44,545 bases of DNA from an uncultured Gammaproteobacteria bacterium (GTDB taxonomy: Bacteria > Pseudomonadota > Gammaproteobacteria > JAUZRS01): assembly GCA_964615985.1 (NCBI GenBank), contig CAZTQX010000002.1, positions 7,805-52,349 on the forward strand, written 5' to 3'. How positions within the stretch are numbered: position 1 is the stretch's first letter; every line of letters begins with the position of its first letter. Position numbers and translations under genes: made by a program. The notes beneath the pieces were generated by a model. The model saw nothing but the letters and a program-made list of their open reading frames with translations, made no database searches and was not told where the DNA came from. Below, piece by piece: positions 7,183-29,022 of this stretch.

Positions 7183-7368
7183 CACCTAACTCCTTAACAT
7201 GCCACGCTGATCTCAACCAAAACGTAAAATCCACGACACATAACTTAACAAAGACTTAAAGATACCAGAATACCCATCTACTTTGATCTTTTTATTACCC
7301 AGTTCACACTATCAACTTTAACAATCAGCTCAAAAGTCTAAAACTTGATCCTTCCCACAAAGATTAAA

Positions 7369-8394: not shown

Positions 8395-8532
8395 TGACCT
8401 AAAATCCTATTAAAAAACCATAGGCGCATTATGGAAGCTTCCAGAATATCTGTCTCACTACACGAGCAAAAATCCTACCAAAGCCCGAAAAAAGCAGATA
8501 GAACGTCTGTCATACAAAATTTTCAGGCCACT

Positions 8533-8560
8533 TTGTCACAGCCGCAGTTGCGGGTATAAT
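8533..8560 (+). promoter_or_regulatory. Candidate sigma70 promoter for the 8597-9325 gene pair
   Basis: TTGTCA (8533-8538), 16-nt spacer, perfect TATAAT (8555-8560), 36 nt upstream of ATG 8597. Confidence 0.45.
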
Positions 8561-8596
8561 TCTTCAACAATGGTTACCAACCTTCACTAATCGAGA

Positions 8597-8842
8597 ATGA
8601 ACATGCCTTATTATGTTTACCAAGTAACACTCGGCCCCACCGACATACTCAAACGGCTTAAACTGGAAGCCACCTTTGAACTCTATCGTGAAGCCAAAAA
8701 CTATCTCAAGGAACAACGTAAAAAACTGGCCAGCGACAGCCGACACAGCTATCAAGTGGTGTTTGCCGCCAATGCTCTACAAGCAGAAGAACAACTGATG
8801 GAAAAACGCGAAGCGCCTATCTTGCAAGAGTGGGAAAAGTAA
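8597..8842 (+). CDS. Hypothetical small protein (81 aa)
   Basis: The ORF lies downstream of a good promoter and 6 nt upstream of the next ORF. No recognisable motif. The start could be ATG 8603. Confidence 0.5.
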   Translation: MNMPYYVYQVTLGPTDILKRLKLEATFELYREAKNYLKEQRKKLASDSRHSYQVVFAANALQAEEQLMEKREAPILQEWEK

Positions 8843-8848
8843 CCTTTT

Positions 8849-9325
8849 ATGGACGAGCCTGAGTTTAAAAAAGCCTATCACGCCCTCAGTTATCGCCCCT
8901 GCCCGTTTGAAAAAACTCAGCTAGCGCGTCACAGTCGCTGTCGTTATGCCCAACAGTTTCGGATTGCGGATCGCAGCGGTCTGAGTTGCCAATCGGCGAC
9001 CGCCCAGCCGCGTTGTCAGCAGTTGTTGAAACTGCTCCGCCACAACGCTCGCTTCAGCCTCAAACTGACCGAAATCGAAGGGCCACTGCCTCATTCAAAA
9101 GAGATTAAGGTACAAACTGGCGGTTTACGAGGATTACGAAAAGCAGTACAAGGGGAGAGCAGCGAAGGGATTGTCGAAGATATTTTTGCTCTTGTGGAAG
9201 AGGCCTTAGAGCAATTTCAAGAGTTGGACAACTTACCTTACGAGCAATTTTTAGCCGAAATCAATGCGCTGGAAACGAGCTGGCGGCGGCGTAAAAAACC
9301 CAAGCCGAAACCCGAATCCGATTAA
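8849..9325 (+). CDS. Hypothetical protein (158 aa) with four N-terminal Cys and a Lys/Pro-rich tail
   Basis: Co-directional and tightly spaced with 8597..8842. Cys in RPCPF, SRCRY, LSCQS and PRCQQ. The tail is WRRRKKPKPKPESD. No family recognised. Confidence 0.55.
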   Translation: MDEPEFKKAYHALSYRPCPFEKTQLARHSRCRYAQQFRIADRSGLSCQSATAQPRCQQLLKLLRHNARFSLKLTEIEGPLPHSKEIKVQTGGLRGLRKAVQGESSEGIVEDIFALVEEALEQFQELDNLPYEQFLAEINALETSWRRRKKPKPKPESD

Positions 9326-13790: not shown

Positions 13791-14729
13791 CTAATAACGG
13801 CGCGGAAAGAGCAGGTCAAAGGCTCGAATTTGACGCGGTAAAAGGCGCAAACCAAGGTGATCCGCCGTACGCCGATTAAGGGCAAACTTAGCCTCTAACA
13901 GCGCACGAACCCCCTCATCAGTAGCGTCTTGCTGTAATTGACGTTGCGCCATTCTGGCCAAGCTTTGACCCAACGCTTCGTTATCTGCATAAAGAGAAAA
14001 GAGTGCGCCTCTTTTAGCATGCACCGAAGTACTGGAAAAAATCACAAATTCCCGTTCCCATGCTTGGCTCAACAGATTAGAAAAATTCCGACTTTGATCC
14101 ACCGTCACCCGATCCATCGGCAGCCACAATGCGTCCTTTTTAGCGTCCAACTGTTTCAACCAACGACGATAATGGCCCGCCGCTTCCTTCATACTCTCTG
14201 CTGGGATGGCATTCAAACGCAGGCCTCGACTGAGCGCCTCCTGCTGCGCCTTTTTAATCAAACAGGCGTTATTTTCCATATTATAGATCACCGTGATCGT
14301 CTCCACTTCGGGAACCAGAGAAACCAAGGTTTCAAACAGCAGCTTAGGGTCAGGCATCAAACTGATGCCCGTGCCAGCGTTGCGGCTCACCGACAGATCG
14401 GTCCCGCCAAACACCACCTTTACCAGCCCATCCAACTGCGACAGCGCTCTCGAACCTGCTCCTCCCAAGGCAATAACCACCTCAATCTCTTGCTGATCAA
14501 GCCACGCATCCAACGCATCCAATTGATAATCTGGAGATAGAGCATAACTGCGCACCGGCTCACCGATAACCGCCGTAATTCCCTTTAACATCTCGTCAAA
14601 AATCGCTTTAAAATGCCCATCCACCTGCGGATAAACCACCGCCACAGGCTGCTGTGCCAACACACCTTGTAAGGGCATGCAACACAACAACAGCAACCAT
14701 AGCCAGGCCATTCGCTTAGGTAAAAACAT
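13791..14729 (-). CDS. Periplasmic substrate-binding protein of the uncharacterised ABC_sub_bind (COG2984-like) type, with no transporter partner
   Basis: Signal peptide MFLPKRMAWLWLLLLCCMPLQGVLA. The pattern VVIALGGAGS..VVFGGTD..ITVIYN..DALWLPMD..VIFSS..GALFSL resembles PF04392-type binding proteins. The start is uncertain: the track gives TTG 14765; ATG 14729 gives the best signal peptide; ATG 14711 is also possible. Confidence 0.7.
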   Translation of the reverse strand: MFLPKRMAWLWLLLLCCMPLQGVLAQQPVAVVYPQVDGHFKAIFDEMLKGITAVIGEPVRSYALSPDYQLDALDAWLDQQEIEVVIALGGAGSRALSQLDGLVKVVFGGTDLSVSRNAGTGISLMPDPKLLFETLVSLVPEVETITVIYNMENNACLIKKAQQEALSRGLRLNAIPAESMKEAAGHYRRWLKQLDAKKDALWLPMDRVTVDQSRNFSNLLSQAWEREFVIFSSTSVHAKRGALFSLYADNEALGQSLARMAQRQLQQDATDEGVRALLEAKFALNRRTADHLGLRLLPRQIRAFDLLFPRRY

Positions 14730-14771
14730 GTGTAAAATAATCTGCATCCATAAATCGAATTTCAACCCGCC

Positions 14772-16856
14772 CTAAAAAGTATAACTCAGCTCGGCAAACA
14801 CATTCCGCCCTGCCAGAGGCAGGTCATTTGGAATCTCTGCTGCCGACGGTTCACGACGCTCCGCATCAAACAGATTACGCACCCCCAGCGCAGACTCCCA
14901 GCCTGAAGATGCAGAACGACGTCGCACCGTCAGATCCACCGAACTGTAATCGGCTACCTCTGCTCGCAGATCTCCCGCCGCTCTGGCTCTTGACATCAGC
15001 AGATTCAAACGTGAATTCACGCTCCAGGCGGGTTGAAATTGCCAGTCTGCCTGCAGATAGAGCTGATGATTGGGTGCATTGGCGGCAGATTGATTGCTGC
15101 TGTTATCCAAAGAGGATTGATAGGCTGTATTCAGCATCAAATGCAGATCAGAGGTCACCCGCCAATCCACCTCAAACTCCAATCCACCGCCACTCTGACT
15201 GCCACCATTTTGTGCTCGCTTTGACAGATCCGAGCCACTGGGATCAACGGGTTCAAAACGGATAATATCCTGCCATAAATAGGAAAACAGACTGGCGCTC
15301 AAACGCAGTCTCTCTTGAGGGTAGTATTCAAAAGCCAACTCAGTGGTTTGTATCGTCTCTGGTTTCAAATCCGCATTGCCCAACGCCACCGGATTATTAC
15401 GATTTTGGGTCTCTGCAAACGAAGGAGCACGGAATGCCTGACCGTACAGCAGCTTAAGCGTCATATTCTGCTGCAGTGACCAAATCAAGGCTAAACGCGG
15501 ATTAAGCGTCTGGCCAAAATCACTGTAATCGTCCAACCGTACCCCAGAGGTCAACTCCCAATCATTAGCCAATTTCCAGATATCCTGTAAAAAAAGATGG
15601 GCATTTTGTCGCCCCCCTTCAGGTAAAAAGACCGCCGCACTGTCCGATACATCCACCAAGGCGCCCAAGGGTGCAGGGAGAGGAGAGCCCATGGGAAATT
15701 CAAAATTTTTGCTCTCATTAACTCGGTAAATTTCACTGTCACTGTAACCCACGCCTAAACGAAGACGATGAGCAAAAAAACCAGCATACGAGGCCGAAAC
15801 GTTCCAGCGAGCATGCCGCTCAAACACTTCAGGATTACCAATAACGCCCGCTTGAAAACCCAGACCACCTGCAGGAAAAAGATTTAAATTCTCCTCAACC
15901 CGCTGGGAGGTGTCGTAAAAACTCAATTGAGTACTGATGTCCCAATCGTCAGCCAAATTAGGATTATGATAATTCAGATCCAAATTCCAACGTTCGCTGC
16001 CCAAGCGACCACTGGGATCCAGTGCCGAGGCAAGACCGACCCCCGAACCATTGTTGCTGCGACGCTGCCAACCCAAACGTGCGATAAAATCGCCCCGCCC
16101 CAGCTCCAAGCGCAGATCCAGATTATCCCGCTGTCGATTCACTGATCCTGGAGCCAAGGAGAATTGACTGCCAAACAGTTGATCTAAACCACTCTGCGCA
16201 TCCTGTTCGATAATATTCTTAGCCCCATCCGTGCGATGACTCTCTAAGGTAAAAGCAAACTGCCAACCCGCCAACTCACTGCCGTGCAACAACCAAAGAT
16301 CCTGAGCAGCAAAACTGCCGTAACGCACCCCAACCTCGGTACCGTTAATATCCGCCGCATTTTTGGTAATGACATTGATCACCCCAGCAAAGGCATCAGC
16401 ACCGTAAATCGCAGCCCCAGGGCCACGAATCACCTCAACTCTGGCGATGGCTTTGACTGGCATCCCTCCCCAGACTTGATGACGATCACCCACAAACAGG
16501 CTGTTGATCGGCACCCCATTGATCAACATCAACACCTCGGCATTGAAAGTAGAGGCGATACCCCGAAACAAATAGAGAGGGTTGTAACCATTGCTACGAG
16601 AAACATGCAGCCCAGGAATACTCTCCAAAATCTCATCCAGATCGGTCACTCCCATCGCCCGAATCTGCTTGGCAGTAATCACATTGGCCACCGCTGGAGC
16701 TTTGGAAATCGGCTGCTGCTCCCCCGTGGCAATGGTAATCATCTCCTCATCACCGTAAAGCAACAACAGATCTTGCTCCTCACGACTGTACTCTACAGCC
16801 CCTGCAGCCCCACTTAACAGCCCAAAACAGAACAGCAATGGCAGATAACCCAACAT
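14772..16856 (-). CDS. TonB-dependent outer-membrane receptor (694 aa)
   Basis: GGAGG lies 7 nt before ATG (complement of 16854-16856). Signal peptide, TonB-box-like EEMITIATG, plug motifs (ITAKQIRAMGVTDLDEILESIPGLHV, IRGPGAAIYGADAFAGVINVITK), and a C-terminal beta-barrel ending in aromatic ..ELSYTF. Confidence 0.9.
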   Translation of the reverse strand: MLGYLPLLFCFGLLSGAAGAVEYSREEQDLLLLYGDEEMITIATGEQQPISKAPAVANVITAKQIRAMGVTDLDEILESIPGLHVSRSNGYNPLYLFRGIASTFNAEVLMLINGVPINSLFVGDRHQVWGGMPVKAIARVEVIRGPGAAIYGADAFAGVINVITKNAADINGTEVGVRYGSFAAQDLWLLHGSELAGWQFAFTLESHRTDGAKNIIEQDAQSGLDQLFGSQFSLAPGSVNRQRDNLDLRLELGRGDFIARLGWQRRSNNGSGVGLASALDPSGRLGSERWNLDLNYHNPNLADDWDISTQLSFYDTSQRVEENLNLFPAGGLGFQAGVIGNPEVFERHARWNVSASYAGFFAHRLRLGVGYSDSEIYRVNESKNFEFPMGSPLPAPLGALVDVSDSAAVFLPEGGRQNAHLFLQDIWKLANDWELTSGVRLDDYSDFGQTLNPRLALIWSLQQNMTLKLLYGQAFRAPSFAETQNRNNPVALGNADLKPETIQTTELAFEYYPQERLRLSASLFSYLWQDIIRFEPVDPSGSDLSKRAQNGGSQSGGGLEFEVDWRVTSDLHLMLNTAYQSSLDNSSNQSAANAPNHQLYLQADWQFQPAWSVNSRLNLLMSRARAAGDLRAEVADYSSVDLTVRRRSASSGWESALGVRNLFDAERREPSAAEIPNDLPLAGRNVFAELSYTF

Positions 16857-17146
16857 CAATTCCCCTCCCCCTTATTAAATACACAGCGATTCGTTATTAT
16901 TGTTATTCGAAAGCCGCCAACAAAAATTTCAAAACTTATTCTAACCTTAAATTCTTTACCGCGCACTCGGACAACGTCATTGATTCGAGATAAAAAAACC
17001 AATCCTAACACCTGTATGTAACTCATAGGCTTCTAAGCATCTGACAGTTCAGGCATAATGACCCCCTTTTTTAGGGCTGAGCCAATTCGTAAGCAAGGCT
17101 TTTGCCGCCACCATAAAATCACTCGTCACTTTGGCGTGAGGACACT

Positions 17147-19807
17147 ATGACTACACTACCCGACGTTGATCCCCAAGAGACTCAAGAGTGGCTCGAAGCC
17201 CTGGAAGCGGTCATTGATGCAGAAGGTTCGGAACGCGCCCACTACCTGCTAGGCAAGTTGATCGACCAAGCACGTCGCTCAGGCACCTATTTGCCCTTCA
17301 GTGCCAACACCGCCTACCTCAACACCATTCCGACTCATCTAGAAAAACGCAGCCCTGGCGACCAAGAACTGGAACGCCGTCTGCGCTCCTACATCCGCTG
17401 GAACGCCTTGGCAATGGTGGTCAAAGCCAACCGTAAAAACCCCGATCTCGGTGGGCACATTGCCAGCTTTGCCTCCTCAGCAACCCTCTACGATGTGGGT
17501 TTCAATCACTTCTTCCATGCCCAGAACAGCGACCACGGCGGTGATTTGGTCTTTATGCAGGGTCACTCATCACCCGGCATCTACGCTCGCGCCTTCCTTG
17601 AAGGCCGCTTGAGCGAAGATCAACTGAATCACTTCCGCCAAGAGTCCGAAGGCAAAGAGATCGGCCTCTCCTCTTACCCTCATCCGTGGTTGATGCCCGA
17701 TTTCTGGCAGTTCCCCACCGTCAGCATGGGACTTGGCCCGATTATGGCCATCTACCAAGCGCGTTTTTTGAAGTACATGCATCATCGTAAGCTGGCCAAC
17801 ACCGAACCGCGCCGAGTCTGGGCGTTTTTAGGTGACGGCGAAACCGACGAGCCAGAATCTTTAGGTGCCATATCACTGGCGGGACGGGAAAAACTCGACA
17901 ACCTCACCTTCGTGGTCAACTGCAACCTGCAACGCCTTGATGGCCCTGTGCGCGGCAACGGCAAAATCATCCAAGAATTGGAAGCGGTCTTCCGTGGTGC
18001 CGGTTGGAATGTGATCAAGGTGGTCTGGGGTTCTTACTGGGATCCGTTGCTGGCCAAGGACAAAACCGGTCTGTTGCAGCAACGGATGGAAGAGTGCGTC
18101 GATGGCGAATACCAAAACTACAAAGCCAAAGGCGGGGCTTACACCCGCGAACATTTCTTCGGCAAATACCCCGAACTGAAAGAGATGGTGGCCAACCTTT
18201 CCGACGATGACATCTGGCATCTGAATCGCGGTGGCCATGATCCACACAAAGTCTTTGCGGCCTACGCCGAAGCCGTTGCCCACAAAGGCCAGCCCACGGT
18301 TATTTTGGCCAAGACCGTCAAAGGTTACGGCATGGGTGAGTCCGCCGAAGGGCAGAACATCAGCCACTCGAAAAAGAAGCTGGATGCCGACGATCTGCTC
18401 GCCTTCCGCAACCGCTTCCGTCTGCCACTGAGCGACGAACAGGCCACCAACGCCGACTACCTCAAACCCGCCGACGACAGCGAAGAGATGATCTACCTGC
18501 AAGAGCGGCGCAAAGCGCTGGGCGGTTATCTGCCCTCACGCCAACATCTGGCCGCACCGCTGGAAGTACCGCCTTTAAGCAGCTTCTCAGCAATGCTCAA
18601 AGGCAGTGGCGAACGTGAAATGTCCACCACGATGGCCTTTGTACGCATATTAACCTCTCTGACCCGCGATAAAAAAGTCGGCAAAAACATCGTTCCCATC
18701 GTTCCCGATGAAGCGCGTACCTTCGGCATGGAGGGCATGTTCCGTCAGCTCGGCATCTACTCCTCCGTGGGGCAGCTCTACGAACCTCAGGATCGTGATC
18801 AGCTGATGTATTACAAAGAGGACAAATCCGGTCAGATTCTTGAAGAGGGCATCAACGAAGCCGGTTCCATGTCGTCGTGGATTGCAGCGGCCACCGCCTA
18901 CAGCAATCATGGGATCAACATGATCCCCTTCTACATCTACTACTCCATGTTCGGTTTCCAACGCATTGGCGATCTCGCTTGGGCAGCCGGTGACATGCAG
19001 GCACGGGGGTTCTTGATCGGAGCCACCGCCGGACGCACCACCCTTAACGGTGAAGGTCTGCAACATCAAGACGGTCACGGTCTGCTGGTGGCCAACACCA
19101 TCCCCAACTGCGTCGCCTACGACCCCACCTACGCTTACGAAATGGCGGTCATTATTCACAACGGCATGCAGCGCATGGTGGAGAAGCAAGAAAACGTCTT
19201 CTTCTACATCACCGCCATGAACGAAAACTACCAGCAGCCCGCCCTGCCCGAAGGGGTTGAAGAGGGCATCCTCAAAGGCATGTACAGCCTCAAGGCATCC
19301 AGCAGCAAAGGCCCGAAAGTGCAACTGCTGGGCAGTGGCACCATTTTGCGCGAAGCCATCGCCGCCGCCGAACTGCTGGAGCAGGATTTTGGGGTCAGTG
19401 CCGATCTCTGGAGCGTCACCAGCTTCAATGAGCTGGCACGGGACGGCCACGATGTGGAGCGTTACAACATGCTCAACCCGAAGAAAAAAGCCCGCATCAG
19501 CTATGTGGAACAGTGCCTCAGCGACAGCCAAGGCCCCGTGATCGTCGCCACCGACTACATCCGCGCCTACGCCGATCAGATCCGAGGTTACGTCCCCAGC
19601 GACTACAAAGTTCTGGGTACCGACGGTTTTGGTCGCTCCGACAGCCGCGAAAAGCTGCGTACCTTCTTTGAGGTCAATCGTTATTACATCGCCGTTGCAG
19701 CACTTAAAAGCTTGGCGGATCGCAAAGAGATCGCCGCCAACAAAGTGGCAGAAGCGATTGAAAAATACGGCATCGACATCAACAAACCCAACCCCATCAC
19801 GGTTTAG
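17147..19807 (+). CDS. aceE: Pyruvate dehydrogenase E1 component (homodimeric type)
   Basis: 886 aa. N-terminus DVDPQETQEWLEALEAV, ThDP motif GDGETDEPES, followed directly by E2 and E3. Confidence 0.96.
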   Translation: MTTLPDVDPQETQEWLEALEAVIDAEGSERAHYLLGKLIDQARRSGTYLPFSANTAYLNTIPTHLEKRSPGDQELERRLRSYIRWNALAMVVKANRKNPDLGGHIASFASSATLYDVGFNHFFHAQNSDHGGDLVFMQGHSSPGIYARAFLEGRLSEDQLNHFRQESEGKEIGLSSYPHPWLMPDFWQFPTVSMGLGPIMAIYQARFLKYMHHRKLANTEPRRVWAFLGDGETDEPESLGAISLAGREKLDNLTFVVNCNLQRLDGPVRGNGKIIQELEAVFRGAGWNVIKVVWGSYWDPLLAKDKTGLLQQRMEECVDGEYQNYKAKGGAYTREHFFGKYPELKEMVANLSDDDIWHLNRGGHDPHKVFAAYAEAVAHKGQPTVILAKTVKGYGMGESAEGQNISHSKKKLDADDLLAFRNRFRLPLSDEQATNADYLKPADDSEEMIYLQERRKALGGYLPSRQHLAAPLEVPPLSSFSAMLKGSGEREMSTTMAFVRILTSLTRDKKVGKNIVPIVPDEARTFGMEGMFRQLGIYSSVGQLYEPQDRDQLMYYKEDKSGQILEEGINEAGSMSSWIAAATAYSNHGINMIPFYIYYSMFGFQRIGDLAWAAGDMQARGFLIGATAGRTTLNGEGLQHQDGHGLLVANTIPNCVAYDPTYAYEMAVIIHNGMQRMVEKQENVFFYITAMNENYQQPALPEGVEEGILKGMYSLKASSSKGPKVQLLGSGTILREAIAAAELLEQDFGVSADLWSVTSFNELARDGHDVERYNMLNPKKKARISYVEQCLSDSQGPVIVATDYIRAYADQIRGYVPSDYKVLGTDGFGRSDSREKLRTFFEVNRYYIAVAALKSLADRKEIAANKVAEAIEKYGIDINKPNPITV

Positions 19808-19816
19808 AGAGTAGAC

Positions 19817-21127
19817 ATGGCTAACGAAGAGAAAGTTTTAGTACCCGACATCGGTGATTTTGCCGGTGTCGAGGTGATCGAAATTCTGGTCGCCACCGGC
19901 GACTCCGTGCAAAAAGAAGATTCGCTTATCACCTTAGAGAGCGACAAAGCCACGATAGAGATCCCAGCACCGGCCAGCGGTGTGGTGGGCAAAATCGAAG
20001 TCGCCATCGGTGACACCATCGCCGAAGGCGATTTGGTGATGTGGTTGCAGGCCAACAGTTCGACCACTGCGACTGCGGCTGAACCCGAACCTGAAGCTGC
20101 CGCTCCAGAACCCGCCAAAGCTGAACCTACAGCTGCGGCTCCCAAAGCAGCCGCCCCCGTTGCAGCAGCGCCAACACTGGCTCCGACAGCAGCGCCAGCC
20201 AGTGGCAAAGCGGCTCACGCCAGCCCAGCGGTGCGCCGTTTTGCCCGCGAGCTGGGTGCCGACATCAACCAAATTGGCGGTTCTGGCCCCAAAGGGCGCA
20301 TCCGCAAAGAGGATGTGCAGAACTTTATCAAAGCCGCTCTGAGCGGTTCCGCTCCCGCAGCCAACGCTGCGGCCAGTGGTTCGGGTTTGGCCGTTGCTGC
20401 GATGCCCAACATCGACTACAGCAAATTTGGCCAGATCGAAACCCTACCGTTGAGCAAGATCAATAAAATCACCGGCCAAGTGCTGCACCGCAACTGGGTC
20501 ACCATCCCGCATGTGACTCAATTTGATGATGCCGACATCACCGATCTGGAGGCTTTCCGCAAACAGTTGGTGGGCGAATACAAGGATCGGGGGATCAAAA
20601 TCACCCTGCTGACCTTCTTGATGAAAGCGGTGGTGGCAGCACTGAAACAGTTCCCTCGTTTCAACGCCTCCTTGGATGCCAGCGGCGAAAACCTGATTCT
20701 GAAACAGTATTACAACATCGGCATTGCCGTCGCCACCCCCGACGGTTTAGTCGTGCCGGTGATTCGTGACGTGGACAAAAAGAGCATCGTCGAGCTGGCA
20801 CAGGAGCTGACCGCTATCAGCATCAAAGCCCGCGACAAAAAACTCGGCCCAAAGGACATGCAAGGCGGTTGCTTTAGCATCTCCAGCTTGGGTGGTCTCG
20901 GCGGCAGCGCCTTCACCCCGATTGTGAACGCACCTGAGGTGGCCATCTTAGGTGTGTCACGTTCCGCGATGAAACCGATCTACCAGCCCGATGGTGAGTT
21001 TGCCGCCCGTCTGATGCTGCCGCTGTCTCTCTCTTACGACCATCGTGTCATCGACGGTGCCGACGGCGCACGTTTCACCAGCTACCTGAGCCGCGTGCTG
21101 GCCGACATGCGCCGCGTGCTGCTCTAA
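19817..21127 (+). CDS. aceF: Dihydrolipoyllysine-residue acetyltransferase (E2), single lipoyl domain
   Basis: Lipoyl motif [11 protein letters not shown], Ala/Pro linker, E3-binding domain [16 protein letters not shown], catalytic DHRVIDG. Confidence 0.95.
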
Positions 21128-21143
21128 TCTGAGGATTTTATTT

Positions 21144-22895
21144 ATGGACAAACTGATTACCGTCAAGGTACCCGACATCGGTGATTTCGCCGCTGTGGAA
21201 GTGATCGAACTGTTGGTCTCCGTGGGCGACAGCGTCAACGCCGAAGACTCTTTGGTGACGCTGGAGAGCGACAAAGCCACCATGGAGATTCCCTCCCCCG
21301 AAGCAGGCGTGGTGAAAGAGCTGCTGATTAATATGGGCGACACCCTCAGTGAAGGCGATGCCATCATCATGCTGGAATTGGCCGACTCTGCTGAAGCAAC
21401 AACGACAGAGGAAAAACCAGCCGCTGCCGTTGCAGAAGCGCCTGCTGTCACTGCCCCCACGCTCGCTGCCGCCAGCAGCGACAGCGATCTGCACGCCGAA
21501 GTGGTGGTGCTGGGTTCAGGGCCGGGTGGTTACACCGCCGCTTTCCGTGCTGCTGATTTGGGCAAAAAAACCCTGCTGATCGAACGCTACCCCTCTCTGG
21601 GTGGGGTCTGCCTCAATGTCGGCTGCATCCCCTCCAAGGCGCTGCTGCACACCGCGCACATCATCACCGAAGCCGAGGAGATGTCCTCCCACGGCATCAC
21701 CTTCGGCCAACCTAAAATTGATCTGAGCACGCTGGTGGGCTGGAAAAACAAGGTGATCCATCAGCTCACCAACGGTCTCAAAGGGCTGGCCAAACAGCGC
21801 AACGTCACCGTGGTTCACGGCGTTGGCACGCTGCTCAACCCCCATCAGATTCAAGTAGTCAGTGAAGAGGGCAGCAAGATCATCGGCTTTGATAACCTCA
21901 TCATTGCCGCCGGTTCCGAAGCGACCCAGATCCCCGTCTTTCCCAATGACGATCCACGCCTGATCGACTCCACCGGCGCACTGGAGCTGGACGGCATCCC
22001 CGAACGCTTGTTGGTGGTCGGTGGCGGCATTATCGGTCTGGAGATGGCCACCGTGTACGATGCCTTGGGTTCCAAGGTCAGCGTGGTGGAACTCTCTTCT
22101 GGCCTGATCCCTGGTTGTGATCGTGATCTGGTACGGCCACTGGCAAAACGCATCAAAAAACGCTACGAAAACATCTACCTCAACACCCGTGTGACCGCCA
22201 TTGAATCTCAAGAGAGCGGCCTCAAGGTCAGCTTTGAGGGCAAAAAAGCCCCTGAATCCGACACCTTTGACAAAGTGCTGGTTGCCGTAGGCCGAGTGCC
22301 CAACGGCGCTAAAATCGGCGCTGAAAACGCCGGAGTGGCGGTGGACGAACGCGGCTTTATCGCCGTCGATTCCCAACAACGTACCAATGTGTCACACATC
22401 TTTGCCATCGGCGATGTCGTTGGCCAACCGATGCTGGCACACAAAGCGACCCACGAAGGCAAAGTGGCCGCCGAAGTCATCAGCGGTATGAAGTCCCATT
22501 TCGATGCGCTCACCATCCCTTCGGTGGCCTACACCGACCCCGAAGTGGCTTGGATGGGCTTGACCGAAGATCAGGCCAAAGAGCAGGGTATCGAGTACGA
22601 AAAAGGTGCGTTCCCGTGGGCGGCCAGCGGTCGTTCTCTGAGCATCGGGCGTAACGAAGGCCTGACCAAACTGCTGTTTGATAAAACAACCAAACGCATT
22701 TTGGGCGCAGGCATCGTCGGCACCAACGCCGGAGAGTTGCTGGCGGAAGCGGTACTGGCTTTGGAGATGGGAGCCGACATCGAGGACATCGCCCTCACCG
22801 TTCACGCTCACCCGACCCTATCAGAAACGATCAATTTCGCCGCTGAAATGGCCGAAGGCACCATCACCGATCTCTACATTCCTCGCAAGAAATAG
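21144..22895 (+). CDS. lpdA: Dihydrolipoyl dehydrogenase (E3) with an N-terminal lipoyl domain (583 aa)
   Basis: Residues 1-80 are a lipoyl domain ([11 protein letters not shown]). These are followed by FAD motif [14 protein letters not shown], the redox disulfide [13 protein letters not shown], and C-terminal HAHPTLSE. Confidence 0.95.
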
Positions 22896-22962: not shown

Positions 22963-23505
22963 TTAGCCTTTGATCATGCGCGTTAAGGTACCGTCTTTCT
23001 GCACAAACTGATGCAGCAACGCCGCCAACACATGCACTCCCACCAACGCCATCAAAGCGTACTGCCCCAAATAATGCGCTAAGTCCACATAGCCCGCGAT
23101 GAAATCACTGTCCGGCTGCCGTGGAATAGTAAACAAGCCAAAGACATCAATAGCATGACCGCCATAAAGCGAGCCTAAAATACCCGTCAACGGCATAGAA
23201 AGCAGCAACGCATAAAGCCCCCAATGCCCCAATTTAGCCGCAATTGCCTGCCACTTTGGCTCCTGAGCGGGCAGCAAGTAATCAACACTGACACTAACCC
23301 ACAACAGGCGCAGCAAAATCAGCGCCCCTGCCAAGACACCCAACGCACGATGCAAGGCAAACATATCTCTACGTTCATCCGTGTCTTTGGGTAGATCCTC
23401 CATGTTCCAAGCGACCAAAAACAGCGCCACAATCAAAATCGCCATTCCCCAATGCAGCAGACGTGCCGTCACTCCATAACCTTGGGTCTGTTGTAACTCA
23501 CTCAT
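22963..23505 (-). CDS. Cytochrome b561 family membrane protein (CybB-like)
   Basis: Four hydrophobic helices with conserved His (ARLLHWGMAIL, ALHRALG, LGHWGLY, VGVHVLAALLH). AAGGTG lies 6 nt before ATG 23505; the track start 23514 is GTG inside the RBS. Confidence 0.8.
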   Translation of the reverse strand: MSELQQTQGYGVTARLLHWGMAILIVALFLVAWNMEDLPKDTDERRDMFALHRALGVLAGALILLRLLWVSVSVDYLLPAQEPKWQAIAAKLGHWGLYALLLSMPLTGILGSLYGGHAIDVFGLFTIPRQPDSDFIAGYVDLAHYLGQYALMALVGVHVLAALLHQFVQKDGTLTRMIKG

Positions 23506-23597
23506 AAAAATCACCTTAACTCGTCAAAAATAGGAATAAAGAAAAACAACGTTATAACATGTCAATCTAAACAGAAACTTAAACGCCTCTGACAATG

Positions 23598-23978
23598 TTA
23601 ACTCTCAAGAAGTTTCTTCATATCCTCTGCCGAAACCGGCTGAATCAACACCGCTGCCAATGGGAAAATAGCATTGAGTTTATCCAGATATTGGCGCTCA
23701 TGCTTCTGTACCAACACAACCAATTTGGTCTTAGGTGCGTAACGTTGCAAGGCGTACAACAACACGTCCAAATTACTCATGTTGATGCCAGCATAATTGT
23801 TGGCATAACCGTAAAAAAATTCAGCCACCAACCAATCTGGTGGGGTCTTTTTCACCACCATCATCGCCTTACGTTGCGATGCGACCTTCAACTCCAAAAA
23901 ATTGAATTTGGCATACAACGGTGAAAATTGAGGGTGTTGTGGTGATTCAACAATGGAAAACAGAGTGCGTTCTTTCAC
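23598..23978 (-). CDS. Hypothetical protein, receiver-domain-like fold with substituted phosphorylation residues (pseudo-receiver)
   Basis: The GTG start overlaps the glutaredoxin stop (GTGA, 23975-23978). By-eye alignment to CheY: LFSIVES vs FLVVDDF, DWLVAEFFYG vs GFVISDWNMP, KLVVLVQ vs PVLMVTA, AVLIQPV vs GYVVKPF. Confidence 0.5.
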   Translation of the reverse strand: MKERTLFSIVESPQHPQFSPLYAKFNFLELKVASQRKAMMVVKKTPPDWLVAEFFYGYANNYAGINMSNLDVLLYALQRYAPKTKLVVLVQKHERQYLDKLNAIFPLAAVLIQPVSAEDMKKLLES

Positions 23979-24358
23979 GACACACCTGTTTCAACATCCG
24001 CGAATTGCTGCTGCAAATAAGCAATAATATCGTTTGATTCGTACATCCAACGCACCGAACCGTCAGTGTCGGTAATGCGCAAACAAGGCACTTTCACTTC
24101 ACCGCCTTCTCGCAACAGCTCCTCGCGGTACTGCCCCTCTTTACGTGTATCACGAATTTCGATATTCAACCCCAGACGACGGATGGCACGCCTCACCTTG
24201 ACGCAAAAAGGGCAGGCTTCAAATTGATACAGCGCCAAATGCTCCGTTTGCGTATCCAATTTTTGCTGTGTCTCCACATCGTGTTTTGGACGACTCGGGG
24301 AAAAAATAAAATTCAATAGCAGGATAATCCGACCCAATACCCAACGAACTGCTTTCAC
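23975..24358 (-). CDS. Membrane-anchored glutaredoxin-family protein
   Basis: CPFC active site within LALYQFEACPFCVKVRRAI, VPCL further on, and an N-terminal hydrophobic segment VRWVLGRIILLLNFIF. AGGAG lies 6 nt before GTG 24358; the track TTG 24364 abuts the RBS. Confidence 0.75.
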   Translation of the reverse strand: MKAVRWVLGRIILLLNFIFSPSRPKHDVETQQKLDTQTEHLALYQFEACPFCVKVRRAIRRLGLNIEIRDTRKEGQYREELLREGGEVKVPCLRITDTDGSVRWMYESNDIIAYLQQQFADVETGVS

Positions 24359-24437
24359 ACTCAACTCCTAATAATCAGCTTAAGGACAAAAATTGAGTGC
24401 CATTTTACCTGATCCAAAATAAAAGAGAACTGGATAC

Positions 24438-25253
24438 TCAGAGGTCGTCTGCCAACTCTTCCTGCAAGGCAGATCGCCAAGCAGGCCGCCGCCCTTCGGC
24501 AAAAGCATTGACTCCCTCCCGACCTTCTTCTGAACAACGCAGGCGTGCCATTAGCTGCACACTCTCCGTCATAACCTCTTTATCAACCGGCAACACCTGC
24601 TGACGAGCCAACAAGGCTTTTGTCTCCAGCTGAGCCAGAGGCGCTACCGCTTGCAGTTTTTTCAAAAATTTATTGGCCTCCAGCGCCAATTGATTGCGCG
24701 GATAAACCTCATGTACCAACCCAATCTGTTTGGCCTCTTCAGCACTGAAATGCTCACCGGTTAACATGTAACGCCCTGCGGCTCGACTGCCAATCGCCGC
24801 TAAAACATAGGGACTGATAAGCGCAGGGACATAACCTAAACGCACTTCTGGCAAACAAAACCGCGCTTTTTCAGTCGCAAAAACCACATCACAACAGGCC
24901 AGCAAACCCACACCGCTGCCATACACTTCCCCTTGAACCAGTCCAACCACAGGTTTTGGAAAACGATCCAGTTCACGCAACAGTTGGCCTAACTGCAATA
25001 GATCTTCAACTTTATCCTCACCAGCCTCCACCAGCCGCTGCATCTCCTCTATATCACTGCCAATACAAAATTTATGGCCATTAGCAGCAATGACTATTTG
25101 ACGTACCGTATCGTCGGCAGACAAACGCCACAGCGCTTCACGCAACCTCTGGATCAAAACCGTATTCAGAGCATTATGCTGCTCAGGTCTATTGAGCATC
25201 AAACGCACCGTATGCCGAACTCGTTGTTCGATAAGAGGTGGATCATTCTGCAT
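24438..25253 (-). CDS. Enoyl-CoA hydratase/isomerase (crotonase) family protein
   Basis: Crotonase pattern: NRPEQHNAL, FCIGSDI, GEVYGSGVGLLACCD, CLPEVRLGYVP, MLTGEHFSAEEA. AGGAGGG RBS. Confidence 0.85.
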   Translation of the reverse strand: MQNDPPLIEQRVRHTVRLMLNRPEQHNALNTVLIQRLREALWRLSADDTVRQIVIAANGHKFCIGSDIEEMQRLVEAGEDKVEDLLQLGQLLRELDRFPKPVVGLVQGEVYGSGVGLLACCDVVFATEKARFCLPEVRLGYVPALISPYVLAAIGSRAAGRYMLTGEHFSAEEAKQIGLVHEVYPRNQLALEANKFLKKLQAVAPLAQLETKALLARQQVLPVDKEVMTESVQLMARLRCSEEGREGVNAFAEGRRPAWRSALQEELADDL

Positions 25254-25419
25254 TAAAAGAACCCTCCTAAGTTTCTTAAAATCTTGTCTGTGTTATGAAT
25301 GTGTTAATATTTCACAAGCATGCTGGCTGTTGCCCACAAATTACTGATTTTCCCTGTACTTTTGTGATCAAAGTAGCAGTTTCAGCTAGAAATCCAAACA
25401 TACCCAACCTAAACTGGAA

Positions 25420-25435
25420 TGGCACGCATTGCGCT
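25420..25435 (+). promoter_or_regulatory. Candidate sigma54 (-24/-12) promoter upstream of the ThDP-enzyme operon
   Basis: TGGCACGCATTGCGCT: GG at 25421-22 and GC at 25433-34, which is the canonical 12-nt offset. It closely resembles E. coli glnAp2 (TGGCACAGATTTCGCT). The -12 element lies about 78 nt upstream of ATG 25513. Confidence 0.35.
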
Positions 25436-25512
25436 GTAGTATCAAAACTCATCTATTTATAATCAAAGTAACGCATCATTGGCGATTATCTTTACATTAA
25501 ATCAGAAAAAAT

Positions 25513-27255
25513 ATGTCTGAAACTGAGGAAAACACACTGCCAGAAGTCAGTGATCTGCTGTTGGCTTATCTTGAGCAGCTCAAAATTGACTGTGTATTTG
25601 GCGTTCCTGGTGGGGGCATCGAACCCCTCTTTAATGCCCTCGCTCGCAGTCAACGTTCCGGTGGCATCAGAGCCGTCATCGCCCGCCATGAAACCGGCGC
25701 GGCGTTTATGGCCGACGGTTATTATCGCCAAACAGGCAAGCTGGGCGTCTGCTGCGCCACCACGGGACCTGGAGCCACCAACTTATTGACAGGTGTCGCT
25801 TCTGCTTATGAAAACCAGATCCCAGTGTTGGTTTTGACTGGTCAAACCTCACTGAGTCATTTTGGCCAAGGTGCATTACAAGAGTCCTCCAGCAGTGGCA
25901 TCGACACAGTGGGCATGTTTCAACACTGCACCCGTTATAACAGCTTGATCTCGCACCTTGATCAGTTTGAACGCAAATTAATCAGCGCCATTATGACGGC
26001 CTTTCAATCTCCACCGGGTCCTGTTCATCTCACCTTACCCCTAGACATACTGCGTGCTCCCTCTCCCGTACAGCAACCGCAATATTTCCTACCCCAACTC
26101 ACCAAAACCAATTTTTCTGTGGATTTGGAGCAAGTCTCAATCTTAGGAAAAAAACTGGCCGCATCAAAAGGCTTGGCCTTTGTGATTGGTGATGGAGCCG
26201 AAGCCGCCATCGAACCTCTTTGCCAACTAGCCGAAAGATTAGGGGCTTGGCTGATTGCCACCCCACACGCCAAAGGTCTGATCAATCACAATCACCCTCT
26301 GTTCTGTGGTGTGCTGGGATTTGCCGGTCATGAAAGCGCTCTCGCCACCCTAAGACAAGATCGTATTGATACAATTATGGCCATCGGCACCAGTTTAGGT
26401 GAGTGGGCCACCAACGGCTGGGACAGCGCTTTATTAAACCATCGGTTGCTGCATGTGGAAGAGATCGCAACTAATCTGACCCGTTCTCCGATGGCACAAA
26501 TGCAACTCTGTGGCAATTTACAAAAAATATGCACACAACTGCTTGCACAATCAACATCACATCAACAAGACAAAACTGCAGTTAGCCCACCTTCACCGTA
26601 CCAACAACAGATAAAGCAAGACATACTGAAGTTATCCTCTAATGCCCATGCTCTAATAAAACCTCAATGGCTGATGCAAAATCTGGGGAAATTATTACCC
26701 TCTGGCACTCTATTTCTTGCGGACTCCGGCAACAGCATTGCCTGGGCGATCCACTATTTTCACCCACCCGAGCGGCGGTTAACGGCTCGAGACGGTGACA
26801 AACCTCTGTTTCGGGGCGCGCTCGAATTCGCCTCTATGGGTTGGGCCATTGGTGCTGCTGTCGGTACCGCTGTGGGCACACAAAACCAAGCAGTTGTCTG
26901 CGTCACCGGTGATGGCAGCTGGCTTATGTCGGGCCAAGAAATCACCGTCGCCATCCAAGAATCACTCGCCATTATTTTTATTATTCTCAATGACTCTGCA
27001 TTGGGGATGGTCAAACACGGTCAACAGTTAGCCAAAGCCGAGACCATTGGATACGCTCTACCCAACATTAATTATGCCGCGATGGCGCAGGCGATGGGCG
27101 TACAAAGTTTCACCATCCGGCAACCTCAAGAATTATTGCAGCTGGATTTTAAAGCCCTCTGTAAATACCCAGGCCCGACTCTACTGGACATTCACATTGA
27201 TCCCAATGAAGTCCCCCCCATCGGGGCCAGAGTCAAAGTCTTGGGCAGTGCTTGA
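25513..27255 (+). CDS. Thiamine-diphosphate-dependent enzyme of the acetolactate synthase / 2-hydroxyacyl-CoA lyase / oxalyl-CoA decarboxylase superfamily (580 aa)
   Basis: N-terminal PYR domain (VFGVPGGGIEPLFNAL, ARHETGAAFMADGY, TTGPGATNLLTGVASAY) and C-terminal ThDP-binding motif GDGSWLM..ILNDSALGMV. Confidence 0.88.
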   Translation: MSETEENTLPEVSDLLLAYLEQLKIDCVFGVPGGGIEPLFNALARSQRSGGIRAVIARHETGAAFMADGYYRQTGKLGVCCATTGPGATNLLTGVASAYENQIPVLVLTGQTSLSHFGQGALQESSSSGIDTVGMFQHCTRYNSLISHLDQFERKLISAIMTAFQSPPGPVHLTLPLDILRAPSPVQQPQYFLPQLTKTNFSVDLEQVSILGKKLAASKGLAFVIGDGAEAAIEPLCQLAERLGAWLIATPHAKGLINHNHPLFCGVLGFAGHESALATLRQDRIDTIMAIGTSLGEWATNGWDSALLNHRLLHVEEIATNLTRSPMAQMQLCGNLQKICTQLLAQSTSHQQDKTAVSPPSPYQQQIKQDILKLSSNAHALIKPQWLMQNLGKLLPSGTLFLADSGNSIAWAIHYFHPPERRLTARDGDKPLFRGALEFASMGWAIGAAVGTAVGTQNQAVVCVTGDGSWLMSGQEITVAIQESLAIIFIILNDSALGMVKHGQQLAKAETIGYALPNINYAAMAQAMGVQSFTIRQPQELLQLDFKALCKYPGPTLLDIHIDPNEVPPIGARVKVLGSA

Positions 27256-28079
27256 TGTCCAAACAGAAAAAACAAGAAACCATTCGCAGCCATATTTGGC
27301 AAGAAGAGGCCGAAGCAGACAACCCCTTCACGGCCAAAACCTGCTACTGCTCCGGTTACGATGTCTACGGCGACCTGCTTGGCAAAGCCCGCTGGTCTGA
27401 ATACCTTTTCCTCTTGTTTCAACGCCAACCGCCACAACCATGGCAAGCTGCTCTGCTGGAAGATGTCGCCCTTATTTTGGCCAATCCAGGACCACGAGAT
27501 CTCAGTGTTCGTGCCGCCATGAACGGTGGCGTTGGCCAATCCACCAGCGCCTCTTGTTTAATGGCCGCGCTGGCCGTGGGTGCCGGTCAAAATAGTGGCG
27601 CTCACGAACTGGCTCTGGCACTGCAAGGCTGGCAGCAGTGCCAGCTCGACCTAACAGAGTGGCAAGCGTGGTTTAAGGCTCTCAACAAGGATGAACGTGC
27701 TGACATCTGGCCTGATATGGAACACTTTCCAGGTTTTGATCCACAGGGCATCTCCTGCTCCACTCCAGTACGACAAGCCTTACAACACCTCAGCAAACAA
27801 CACCCTGATGGCGCACTCAATTGGCTAATGCACGAACGTGTCTCATTTGAAGCAATCGCCAAAAAACCACTCTCCATGCTCGGTGTCACCGCAGCGGCCT
27901 TTTACGATTTGGGTTTTACACCACAGCAAGGCGAGATGCTCTATCTGCTGCTGCGTCTGCCTGGAGCCGCCGCACATGCCCTAGAGCAGATGCCTCGGGG
28001 CTGGGTTCACTACCCCTTTTTTGCTGATGGTCTACAGGTTGAGAACGACCCAAGTAAACAAGATAAACCCCATGAATAA
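27255..28079 (+). CDS. Citrate synthase-fold (citryl-CoA-lyase-like) protein 1, catalytic residues apparently substituted
   Basis: ATG 27255 overlaps the upstream TGA by 1 nt. The pattern YDVYGDLLGKARWSEYLFLLF..PGPRDLSVRAAMNGGVGQSTSASCLMAALAVGAG..SGAHE and LGFTPQQGEMLYLLLRLPGAAAHALEQ follows the citrate synthase large-domain layout. Confidence 0.6.
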   Translation: MSKQKKQETIRSHIWQEEAEADNPFTAKTCYCSGYDVYGDLLGKARWSEYLFLLFQRQPPQPWQAALLEDVALILANPGPRDLSVRAAMNGGVGQSTSASCLMAALAVGAGQNSGAHELALALQGWQQCQLDLTEWQAWFKALNKDERADIWPDMEHFPGFDPQGISCSTPVRQALQHLSKQHPDGALNWLMHERVSFEAIAKKPLSMLGVTAAAFYDLGFTPQQGEMLYLLLRLPGAAAHALEQMPRGWVHYPFFADGLQVENDPSKQDKPHE

Positions 28080-28905
28080 AACAGACACTCAACTCGAGGC
28101 TTTACTGGATGCCGAACGGCTCTGGGTAACAAAGATGGGGGGGTGGTTTGGCAAAGAACAGCGGGTTGTTTATCGTGGTAAAGACCTCTTTCACGACCTG
28201 AAAGACTTCTCATGGATGGAGCTGCTGCTGTTTGGTGTCACCGGACGAGAGTTTTCCAAACAACAGGTAGCACTCTTTAATGCCATCTGGGTCATCTGCA
28301 TCAGCTACCCTGATCCGCGACTCTGGAATAACCGAGTTGCAGCTCTAGCAGGCACCGCGCGCAGCACAGCCTCTCTGGCCATTGCTGCCGCCACAGCAGT
28401 TTCCGAGGCCACCGTCTACGGTTCGAAAGCTGGGTTACGCTCGATGAATTTTCTCCAGCGCAGTATGAAACAAAAAAAACTCGGTGTCAGTGTTGAAGAC
28501 ATTGTGGCCAACGAGATGAAAAAATATAAAACCATCTCTGGTTACAGTCGCCCAATCCCCATTCCAGATGAACGCATCACTCCCCTGCTACGCAAAGCCG
28601 AAGAGCTGAACTTAGCAAAAGGAGACTATCTATCTCTGTCTTTCCAGGTAGAAGCGGTTTTATTAACAAAACATCCACGGGGGTTTATGAATATTGCGGC
28701 CATGATCGCAGGGCTTGCCGCTGACCAAGGGTTCTCCTGCCAAGAATTGCATCAATTCATGGGGCTGGGTTTTTCAGCCGGAATCTATCCCTGTTTTATC
28801 GAAGCCAGCGAAAAGCCAGAAGGATATTTTTTTCCGCTGCATTGTGAACGTATCGAATATCGCGGTGAAAAACCACGCCAATGGAACGACAGAAAAACTC
28901 AGTAA
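28072..28905 (+). CDS. Citrate synthase-fold (citryl-CoA-lyase-like) protein 2, paralogue of the preceding gene
   Basis: ATG 28072 overlaps the upstream stop by 8 nt (ATGAATAA). VVYRGKDLFHDLKDFSWMELLLFGVTGREFS..YPDPRLWNNRVAALAGTARSTASLAIAAATAVSEA matches the citryl-CoA-lyase-like layout. The track TTG 28021 is unlikely. Confidence 0.6.
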   Translation: MNKTDTQLEALLDAERLWVTKMGGWFGKEQRVVYRGKDLFHDLKDFSWMELLLFGVTGREFSKQQVALFNAIWVICISYPDPRLWNNRVAALAGTARSTASLAIAAATAVSEATVYGSKAGLRSMNFLQRSMKQKKLGVSVEDIVANEMKKYKTISGYSRPIPIPDERITPLLRKAEELNLAKGDYLSLSFQVEAVLLTKHPRGFMNIAAMIAGLAADQGFSCQELHQFMGLGFSAGIYPCFIEASEKPEGYFFPLHCERIEYRGEKPRQWNDRKTQ

Positions 28906-28945: not shown

Positions 28946-29022
28946 TGGTGGCTATGGGTGGACTTGAACCACCGACCCCAGCATTATGAATGCTGTGCTC
29001 TAACCAACTGAGCTACATAGCC
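28946..29022 (-). tRNA. tRNA-Met (CAU), elongator type, CCA encoded
   Basis: The reverse complement GGCTATGTAGCTCAGTTGGTTAGAGCACAGCATTCATAATGCTGGGGTCGGTGGTTCAAGTCCACCCATAGCCACCA folds as a cloverleaf: acceptor GGCTATG/CATAGCC, anticodon stem CAGCA/TGCTG, T stem GGTGG/CCACC. It is very close to E. coli metT. Confidence 0.93.

Follow-up and report, generated by a model that had tools for sequence, protein, structure and literature searches.

Why would a bacterium encode an enzyme dependent on thiamine diphosphate (ThDP) in one run with two proteins that resemble citrate synthase? The question is raised by a 44,545-nucleotide (nt) stretch of DNA from an uncultured gammaproteobacterium (the whole stretch is called the window here; its GC content is 50.9%, and all coordinates are positions in it), in which the gene for a ThDP enzyme and the genes for two proteins that we call A and B follow one another on the plus strand and overlap at their stop and start codons. 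Read from the letters of the window, these three genes, hereafter the trio, had originally been predicted to form, together with a divergently transcribed crotonase gene, a pathway that makes or breaks C-C bonds in coenzyme A (CoA) thioesters. We find instead that the trio forms one half, the enzymes, of a six-gene unit with a wide distribution in Gammaproteobacteria; the other half consists of the genes for a TonB-dependent receptor, a periplasmic binding protein of family PF04392 and a hybrid kinase with GGDEF-EAL output (together, the sensing genes). Because the constant partners of the trio are a receptor, a binding protein and a kinase of cyclic diguanylate (c-di-GMP) turnover, the locus looks like a small-molecule make-and-sense system.

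Relatives of A are encoded in at least 424 species-representative genomes, and a protein collection holds 3507 homologues of A, from Methylogaea, Cycloclasticus, Nitrosococcus, Piscirickettsiaceae and other groups. Loci were searched for with an alignment of A homologues (a search with the single B protein gave no loci), and linkage was counted in the best 80 species-level loci, which encode the closest relatives of A at 53–80% identity; at least 344 other matches lie outside the counts, and each denominator is the number of loci long enough to show the gene in question. The ThDP gene lies directly upstream of A in 68 of 70 loci (in 66 on the same strand) and B lies directly downstream of A in 68 of 69, so that the three-gene linkage seen in the window is kept in other genomes. 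Also downstream of A are the TonB-dependent receptor (53/58), the PF04392 binding protein (46/56) and the hybrid kinase (35/50), the usual order being ThDP-A-B-receptor-binding protein-kinase, with the downstream genes almost always on the same strand. A crotonase gene was found in none of the 80 loci, wherever in the locus we looked (tblastn at 1e-8, at least 40% coverage). Overlapping stop and start codons are commonplace inside operons, and the overlap in the window is by itself not beyond chance; a gene order kept across 80 species-level genomes is.

An unbiased survey of the neighbours, in which every open reading frame (ORF) of 84 loci was clustered all against all, returned only five families that are present in more than 13 loci, namely the ThDP enzyme, B, the receptor, the binding protein and the kinase. 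The same clustering showed no conserved inner-membrane transporter, CoA ligase or CoA transferase in the neighbourhood, and no ilv genes. The CoA-thioester pathway of the original prediction is thus not what is conserved around the trio: its partners are the three sensing genes, which in the window lie between 9343 and 16859 on the minus strand. Here the sensing half is inverted and sits 8.6 kb upstream of the trio, beyond aceE-aceF-lpd; that operon, cytochrome b561, two small genes and the crotonase gene separate the two halves. The sensing genes of the window nevertheless share ORF clusters with those of the other loci, and the window receptor is 43–59% identical to the receptors beside the trio elsewhere, which is high for the family; it is orthologous to those receptors, whose genes come after B.

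Carriers of the locus include chemolithoautotrophs and methanotrophs (Nitrosococcus, Thiohalobacter, Sedimenticola, Parabeggiatoa, Methylococcaceae) as well as Cycloclasticus and Porticoccus. Among the carriers that can be cultivated are Cycloclasticus pugetii and zancles, Nitrosococcus oceani and halophilus, Methylogaea oryzae, Porticoccus litoralis DSM 25064, Fluviicoccus keumensis and Collimonas sp. OK242. About nine loci in all have an additional O-methyltransferase or short-chain dehydrogenase/reductase (SDR) gene embedded in the cluster: a PF00891 O-methyltransferase, at varying position, in L001, L027, L045, L061 and L065 (L numbers are our locus labels), and a FabG-like SDR in L001, L004, L083 and L084. 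PF00891 O-methyltransferases are a small-molecule family and frequently methylate phenols. In a metagenome-assembled genome (MAG) of Planctomycetota, B carries an SRPBCC (Polyketide_cyc2) domain as a C-terminal fusion (L082, 10822-12108). The embedded genes and this fusion are hints of small-molecule biosynthesis. Our literature search found no paper on the ThDP-A-B trio and no characterised operon that matches it, in agreement with the original statement that the cluster resembles no known operon; nor did it turn up anything specific on PF04392 in combination with TonB and GGDEF.

The trio: an acetolactate synthase-like enzyme and two altered citryl-CoA-lyase folds

The ThDP protein had been assigned to the acetolactate synthase (ALS) type, and all three domain models agree with this (TPP_enzyme_N PF02776, 6e-41; the middle domain PF00205, 1e-20; TPP_enzyme_C PF02775, 2e-28), as does the nearest curated family, the ALS large subunit. 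The cofactor motifs are intact, with the activating Glu60 in HETG (59-62) and a GDG-X24-ND motif (GDGS) from residue 466, and the protein has no signal peptide. Its score against the ALS large subunit model TIGR00118 is 289.7 bits (4e-86), short of the curated cut-off of 538, and the scores against the ScyA-related and ScyA models (NF035923/NF035927) are further still from theirs (273 bits against 1000 and 252 against 1020, respectively). The nearest solved structures are BbmA (8X3X, 2e-85) and CsmA (8X3Z, 3e-79), followed at a distance by E. coli ALS I (2e-55), 2-hydroxyacyl-CoA lyase (1.5e-38) and benzaldehyde lyase (2.5e-29); the enzyme is far nearer to ALS, BbmA and CsmA than to 2-hydroxyacyl-CoA lyase or oxalyl-CoA decarboxylase (290 versus 135 bits). 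It thus resembles the ALS-type carboligases (ALS large subunit, ScyA, BbmA, CsmA) in its three-domain architecture, cofactor motifs and length, but differs from them in that all curated cut-offs are widely missed and in that its partners have a citryl-CoA-lyase fold. No ACT-domain small subunit (IlvN/IlvH) is encoded in this region of the window or in the conserved neighbourhood, and A and B occupy the downstream slots.

Two irregularities of the ThDP gene were seen in other loci. In three related MAG loci an IS200-like Y1 transposase ORF lies between the ThDP gene and A (L006, 9231-9767; L008, 9177-9713; L024, 9342-9893), with the gene gaps widened to match the insertion. In two Cycloclasticus metagenome scaffolds (L090 and L093, 8168-9998) the ThDP protein is called as a 217-aa N-domain and a 278-aa C-domain with the middle domain absent, while the rest of the six-gene locus is whole, which may reflect pseudogenisation or an assembly error.

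A and B had been described as citrate-synthase-fold proteins. The fold holds up, whereas the Pfam family of that name (Citrate_synt, PF00285; cut-off 27 bits) is reached by neither: A scores 11.9 bits (E 0.11, below threshold) and B does not match, with some B homologues carrying a precomputed PF00285 match. In favour of the fold, the NCBIfam citryl-CoA-lyase models match A at 2e-11 and B at 5e-13 (overall 1e-11 to 1e-13 and 25–49 bits, below the subfamily cut-offs of 193–261 bits), and the family profiles match the Hydrogenobacter citryl-CoA lyase structure 6HXP at 5e-9 (A) and 3e-10 (B). Monomeric AlphaFold2 models of moderate quality (mean pLDDT 65 for A and 75 for B) were searched with Foldseek and matched citryl-CoA-lyase, ATP-citrate-lyase and citrate-synthase structures only, the B model fitting 6hxp with TM-scores of 0.69/0.74 (E 2e-9) and the A model fitting citryl-CoA-lyase modules with a TM-score of about 0.5 (E 5e-4). 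We accordingly assign the citrate-synthase/citryl-CoA-lyase fold to A and B, a statement that reaches no further than fold and distant homology. Compared with each other, the two are not significantly similar by BLASTP, and a profile-profile comparison gives 90% probability (E 1.7e-6); they are best described as ancient paralogues.

The catalytic triad of citrate synthase consists, in the pig enzyme, of H274 (in HGGA), H320 (in G(F/Y)GH) and D375 (in NVD). We compared 40 homologues each of A and B with 6HXP in HMMER and MAFFT alignments and found all three residues replaced in both families, with the replacements conserved over the homologues. The HGGA histidine is a variable residue in A (Asn in the window) and Tyr in B; in place of the GYGH histidine A has a 'PGFDPxG' insertion and B an Arg; the NVD aspartate is Gly in A and Ala in B. 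Among the arginines that hold citrate or oxaloacetate (R329, R401 and R421' in citrate synthase), the Arg of the DPR motif, equivalent to R329, is deleted in A and kept as 'DER' in B, while the GRVPG Arg (GRVPGLVAH in 6HXP, equivalent to R401) is kept in A as 'LRLPGAAvH' and lost in B, so that each protein retains one type and neither has both. Each family is strongly conserved (50–65% identity across orders) and has invariant residues of its own (Arg, His, Glu and Cys), and A and B are therefore not decaying genes. We regard them as neofunctionalised or non-catalytic proteins of citryl-CoA-lyase fold. With His, His and Asp gone from both, Claisen-type acyl-CoA chemistry by A and B is unsupported, which undermines the step from fold to acyl-CoA C-C chemistry in the original prediction. 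Since the catalytic residues are replaced, the public labels 'citryl-CoA lyase' and 'citrate synthase' are doubtful too, and as statements of function they are probably wrong.

Proteins with the citrate-synthase fold work as obligate dimers whose active sites form at the interface. Neither A nor B occurs without the other, and wherever genes were called the two overlap or lie at most about 60 bp apart. A heterodimer of A and B fits the tandem-fused citryl-CoA-lyase-like modules of a Nannocystis locus (L050, 3-1526 and 6331-8061), and the complementary arginines could plausibly form one composite carboxylate-binding site in the predicted A-B heterodimer. What A and B have in common with citryl-CoA lyase (6HXP, Hydrogenobacter thermophilus), the ATP-citrate-lyase module and citrate synthase is fold, homology and a similar size of about 270 aa, and the known enzymes likewise act as dimers or tetramers with active sites at interfaces. 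They differ in the replaced triad, in not reaching PF00285 and in forming an obligate pair beside a ThDP enzyme, not beside citryl-CoA synthetase. The Nannocystis MAG has further citryl-CoA-lyase-like paralogues around its trio (also at 8110-8910), with a LysR regulator and a cupin gene close by.

The sensing genes and their likeness to known sensor systems

The hybrid kinase has two transmembrane helices (11-37 and 176-205) around a periplasmic domain of about 140 aa, followed in order by HAMP, HisKA, HATPase, three receivers, Hpt, GGDEF and EAL domains, with the motifs GGDEF, EALLR, DDFGTG and EGVE intact; its core scores against BarA, TorS and LuxQ models. The binding protein bears a distant likeness to TrpX (NCBIfam TrpX at 8e-12, below cut-off; matches to PDB 3lft and 3lkv). 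No cognate ABC permease or ATPase accompanies it in the window, and none is among the conserved families of the 84-locus clustering. The best NCBIfam families of the receptor are haem and siderophore receptors, all far under their cut-offs.

A three-part relay of the same order has been described in Cycloclasticus sp. P1, where PahS (TonB-dependent receptor, Q91_0827), PahP (binding protein, Q91_0826) and PahK (kinase, Q91_0825) interact pairwise and are needed for the use of polycyclic aromatic hydrocarbons (PAHs), with PAH binding measured by surface plasmon resonance (PMC10570129, PMC8547461). The PahSPK papers give PAHs as the ligands and do not mention adjacent enzyme genes. Cycloclasticus carries the six-gene locus as well, but the lengths reported for PahS (687 aa) and PahP (318 aa) are not those of its receptor (691 aa) and binding protein (323 aa), and PahK, reported at 771 aa and without GGDEF-EAL output, differs from the kinase of that locus with its 1487 aa. 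At most three of the six published PahP pocket residues match the Cycloclasticus binding protein at any offset, and three published PahS residues map only at an offset of +28, which chance could produce.

The protein AFT67463.1 has the same sequence as the binding protein in the Cycloclasticus locus and presumably comes from strain P1. If PahSPK and these genes are the same, it is improbable that PAH is what the relay naturally detects, because the locus is also present in nitrifiers, methanotrophs and sulfur oxidisers and lies beside genes for cytoplasmic enzymes; an endogenous or more general ligand would then fit better.

Binding-protein-dependent hybrid kinases have precedents in LuxP-LuxQ, which responds to autoinducer 2 (AI-2), and in TorT-TorS, which responds to trimethylamine N-oxide (TMAO). 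As in these, a transporter-less periplasmic binding protein is encoded beside a hybrid kinase with a small periplasmic domain; unlike in these, a TonB-dependent receptor precedes the pair, the kinase has three receivers, Hpt, GGDEF and EAL, and the binding protein is of the PF04392 type. Alpha-hydroxyketones are signature products of ThDP carboligases and are also the signal class of CqsA and LqsA. In the CqsA/CqsS system of Vibrio and the LqsA/LqsS system of Legionella the gene of the synthase for such a signal lies beside that of the sensor kinase. This is a resemblance only: CqsA and LqsA are pyridoxal phosphate-dependent acyl-CoA transferases, not ThDP enzymes, and their systems have neither a TonB-dependent receptor nor a binding protein.

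The region around the locus

The features of the region are collected in the table. The three overlapping plus-strand genes of the original prediction are exact in their coordinates and at both junctions: at 27253-27257 (TGATG) the TGA stop of the ThDP gene and the ATG start of A have the A in common, and at 28072-28079 (ATGAATAA) the ATG start of B is followed by the TAA stop of A, an overlap of 8 nt. The ORF list also offers longer versions with TTG starts at 27252 (A) and 28021 (B); we prefer the ATG starts, with which the N-termini of the 40 homologues of each protein agree. The divergent, AT-rich spacer between the crotonase and ThDP genes was likewise as described, and the tRNA-Met gene is indeed next to the cluster, the 3' end of B abutting it and ychF.

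Table. Features of the window in order of position (aa, amino acids)
Position	Strand	Feature	Remarks
3457-7185	-	Big_5 protein	1242 aa; Big_5, beta-helix and purple-acid/calcineurin-like phosphoesterase domains; just past the kinase gene
7369-8394	-	Big_5 protein	341 aa; beside the 1242-aa Big_5 protein
9343-13770	-	Hybrid sensor histidine kinase	1475 aa; GGDEF-EAL output
13791-14765	-	PF04392 periplasmic binding protein	324 aa; PF04392 2e-10; signal-peptide-like N-terminus
14772-16859	-	TonB-dependent receptor	695 aa; signal peptide; plug and beta-barrel; no N-terminal STN domain
17147-22895	+	aceE-aceF-lpd operon	between the two halves of the locus; lpd product of 583 aa with an extra N-terminal lipoyl domain
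22963-24364	-	Glutaredoxin/GST-N-like gene, ORF, cytochrome b561 gene	129 aa (hydrophobic N-terminus), 126 aa and 183 aa; downstream of the crotonase gene
24438-25253	-	Crotonase	271 aa; ECH_1 6e-49; lineage-specific neighbour, outside the conserved module
25254-25512		AT-rich spacer between crotonase and ThDP genes	259 bp, 34.7% GC; presumed site of the trio promoter in this lineage
25513-27255	+	ThDP-dependent enzyme, ALS-like superfamily	580 aa; three TPP domains; likely carboligase or decarboxylase
27255-28079	+	Citryl-CoA-lyase-fold protein A	274 aa; canonical catalytic residues replaced
28072-28905	+	Citryl-CoA-lyase-fold protein B	277 aa; ancient paralogue of A; canonical catalytic residues replaced
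28946-29022	-	tRNA-Met (CAT)	downstream boundary; site of the receptor gene after B in most other genomes

The spacer matches no riboswitch or other Rfam family, and Rfam over the whole window returned two tRNAs only. Promoter and terminator scans gave counts no different from those of shuffled sequence, and we therefore make no claim on transcription units. The possibility that the six genes were recently acquired by horizontal transfer was considered and rejected: their GC content (0.49–0.54) equals the mean of the window (0.51), and the position of the locus is stable in an 80%-identical relative (L085).

The crotonase belongs to its family as originally stated, yet it is not a member of the cluster. 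Apart from its absence from the 80 species-level loci, its gene heads a minus-strand run of its own, and the synteny of this run with the trio is confined to relatives of 80–100% identity (L085-L089, uncultured gammaproteobacteria including MAGs labelled AMOR20 isolate). The best models of the protein are PRK07468 and gamma-carboxygeranoyl-CoA hydratase, both below cut-off. At the site of the first catalytic Glu it reads 'GSGVGLLACCD', with Gly in place of Glu, while the second Glu is kept ('PEVRLG'); the enzyme may thus not be a simple hydratase. With the c-di-GMP link in mind, we considered it as a synthase of a diffusible signal factor (DSF) of the RpfF type and rejected this, as it is unlinked outside the close lineage. 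The rest of the run comprises the glutaredoxin-like gene, an ORF without family match that overlaps it by 4 nt, and cytochrome b561; the whole run is kept in L085. The two Big_5 proteins at the far side of the kinase gene are both likely secreted or surface proteins.

Genes of 2-oxoacid dehydrogenase complexes also occur near the trio elsewhere. In Cycloclasticus sucA-sucB-lpd lies directly upstream of the ThDP gene, unlike aceEF-lpd in the window, and E2 genes are nearby in 13 and E3 genes in 10 of the 84 loci. A functional tie between the trio and a 2-oxoacid dehydrogenase was rejected, since only 13 of the 84 loci show it and the complexes differ, which points to lineage synteny. Upstream of sucAB-lpd, two Cycloclasticus loci (L090/L091, 1-1997) have flgA, flgM, flgN and a PilZN-PilZ gene (YcgR-like, c-di-GMP-binding); these neighbours possibly link c-di-GMP output to flagellar control, or are a coincidence.

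What the locus may make and sense

From the observed gene content, domains, linkage and loss of catalytic residues we infer a scheme that says which way the chemistry runs, what the product is, that it is exported and how ligand and sensor are related. The trio proteins lack signal peptides; signal-peptide prediction marks the receptor and the binding protein as exported, and the kinase has a periplasmic domain. In the cytoplasm, a ThDP enzyme of carboligase type would be produced together with an A-B heterodimer and would couple or decarboxylate one or more 2-oxoacids, giving a labile alpha-hydroxy-beta-keto-acid or an acyloin-type product, which the A/B pair would bind and process and which in some genomes an embedded SDR ketoreductase or phenol-type O-methyltransferase would tailor. 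The resulting small, possibly aromatic compound would leave the cell and be brought back through the outer membrane by the TonB-dependent receptor. In the periplasm it would be bound by the TrpX-like binding protein, which lacks an ABC importer; because no inner-membrane transporter is conserved in the locus, the ligand would be sensed there, not imported. The binding protein would then signal to the hybrid kinase, whose phosphorelay would shift its GGDEF and EAL activities against each other and thereby set the level of c-di-GMP. We put forward tentatively, with somewhat less than even confidence, that the trio makes such a small, possibly aromatic compound of acyloin type, and that its re-import by the receptor and its sensing in the periplasm control c-di-GMP.

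Several points weigh against this proposal. We know of no product, exporter or enzyme activity for the locus, and TonB-dependent uptake is unusual for a self-made signal. A and B could be non-catalytic, and their AlphaFold2 models are only moderate. The linkage figures rest on the 80 loci closest to A and exclude at least 344 matches, and in the most distant loci (Nannocystis L050, Planctomycetota L082 and Dongiaceae L083) the trio stands without sensing genes. In the window itself, the two halves are no longer co-transcribed.

Two other explanations keep the receptor and its partners as part of the system. The locus could sense an exogenous hydrophobic or aromatic compound that the ThDP enzyme and A/B then cleave or convert, in the manner of benzaldehyde lyase (an acyloin or diketone lyase). 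Acyloin-cleaving lyases are indeed in the same ThDP superfamily (the match at 2.5e-29 cited above), many carriers degrade hydrocarbons, among them Cycloclasticus and Porticoccus, and the Cycloclasticus relay required for PAH use is of the same architecture (PMC10570129, PMC8547461). However, the locus is found equally in chemolithoautotrophs and methanotrophs, it brings along neither a conserved inner-membrane transporter nor further catabolic genes, its output is c-di-GMP turnover and not a transcription factor, and the embedded O-methyltransferases suggest tailoring over breakdown. As for the Cycloclasticus relay, PahK and the kinase of the locus differ in length (771 versus 1487 aa), and no fit was found for the residue numbers in print. 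A catabolic role is thus unlikely in our view, if still worth weighing. Synthesis genes beside a TonB-dependent receptor are, on the other hand, the classic layout of a siderophore locus, and the trio could make a citrate-like alpha-hydroxy-carboxylate chelator whose metal complex is taken up by the receptor, so that metal status is passed on to c-di-GMP. ThDP carboligation of 2-oxoacids gives tertiary alpha-hydroxy acids in established ALS chemistry, A and B keep carboxylate-binding arginines of the citrate pocket, and haem and siderophore receptors are the best families of the receptor. Their scores are all far below cut-off, though, the binding protein is of the TrpX/PF04392 type and not siderophore-binding, and the locus has no conserved inner-membrane permease, reductase, exporter, Fur box or metal-related gene, which makes a metallophore locus quite improbable.

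The remaining two explanations set the sensing genes aside. For the original model of a CoA-thioester C-C pathway, with the ThDP enzyme, two active citrate-synthase-like enzymes and the divergent crotonase, it can be said that the fold assignments were correct, that the ThDP enzyme has recognisable relatives among the 2-hydroxyacyl-CoA lyases (1.5e-38) and that the crotonase is syntenic in the close lineage. The absence of the crotonase from all 80 species-level loci, the missing His/His/Asp in A and B, the closer kinship of the ThDP enzyme to ALS, BbmA and CsmA (by 290 to 135 bits) and the lack of a conserved CoA ligase or transferase leave it very improbable. Scarcely credible, too, is that the trio is an ALS isozyme in which citryl-CoA-lyase-fold regulatory subunits replace the ACT-domain IlvN/IlvH and whose link to the sensing genes is incidental. 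TIGR00118 is the best NCBIfam match of the enzyme (4e-86), and catalytically dead A and B could serve as effector-binding subunits, but the score of 290 bits stays far below the 538 demanded of an ALS, the trio is consistently linked to the receptor, binding protein and kinase, and no ilv genes are nearby.

A self-made compound that is re-imported and sensed therefore stays our preferred, if tentative, reading. A wider claim, which we think rather doubtful as it stands, is that several hundred gammaproteobacterial species have an unrecognised class of self-signalling, in which a ThDP enzyme and A/B make the signal and the cell notices it only once TonB-dependent re-import has returned it, by way of a binding protein and a hybrid kinase that itself both makes and breaks c-di-GMP; this would cast doubt on PAH as the natural ligand in Cycloclasticus. 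The genes of the trio are annotated everywhere as 'citryl-CoA lyase', 'citrate synthase' and 'acetolactate synthase', and among their carriers are nitrifiers, methanotrophs and marine hydrocarbon degraders that are in culture. The coupling of the two halves provides a handle on the product of an orphan ThDP enzyme, on a citrate-synthase fold without its triad and on the natural ligand of an envelope-spanning c-di-GMP sensor. If the signal is indeed self-made, the locus would represent a new autoinducer chemistry with import-gated perception, and it would bear on the decisions between biofilm and motility in environmentally important bacteria.

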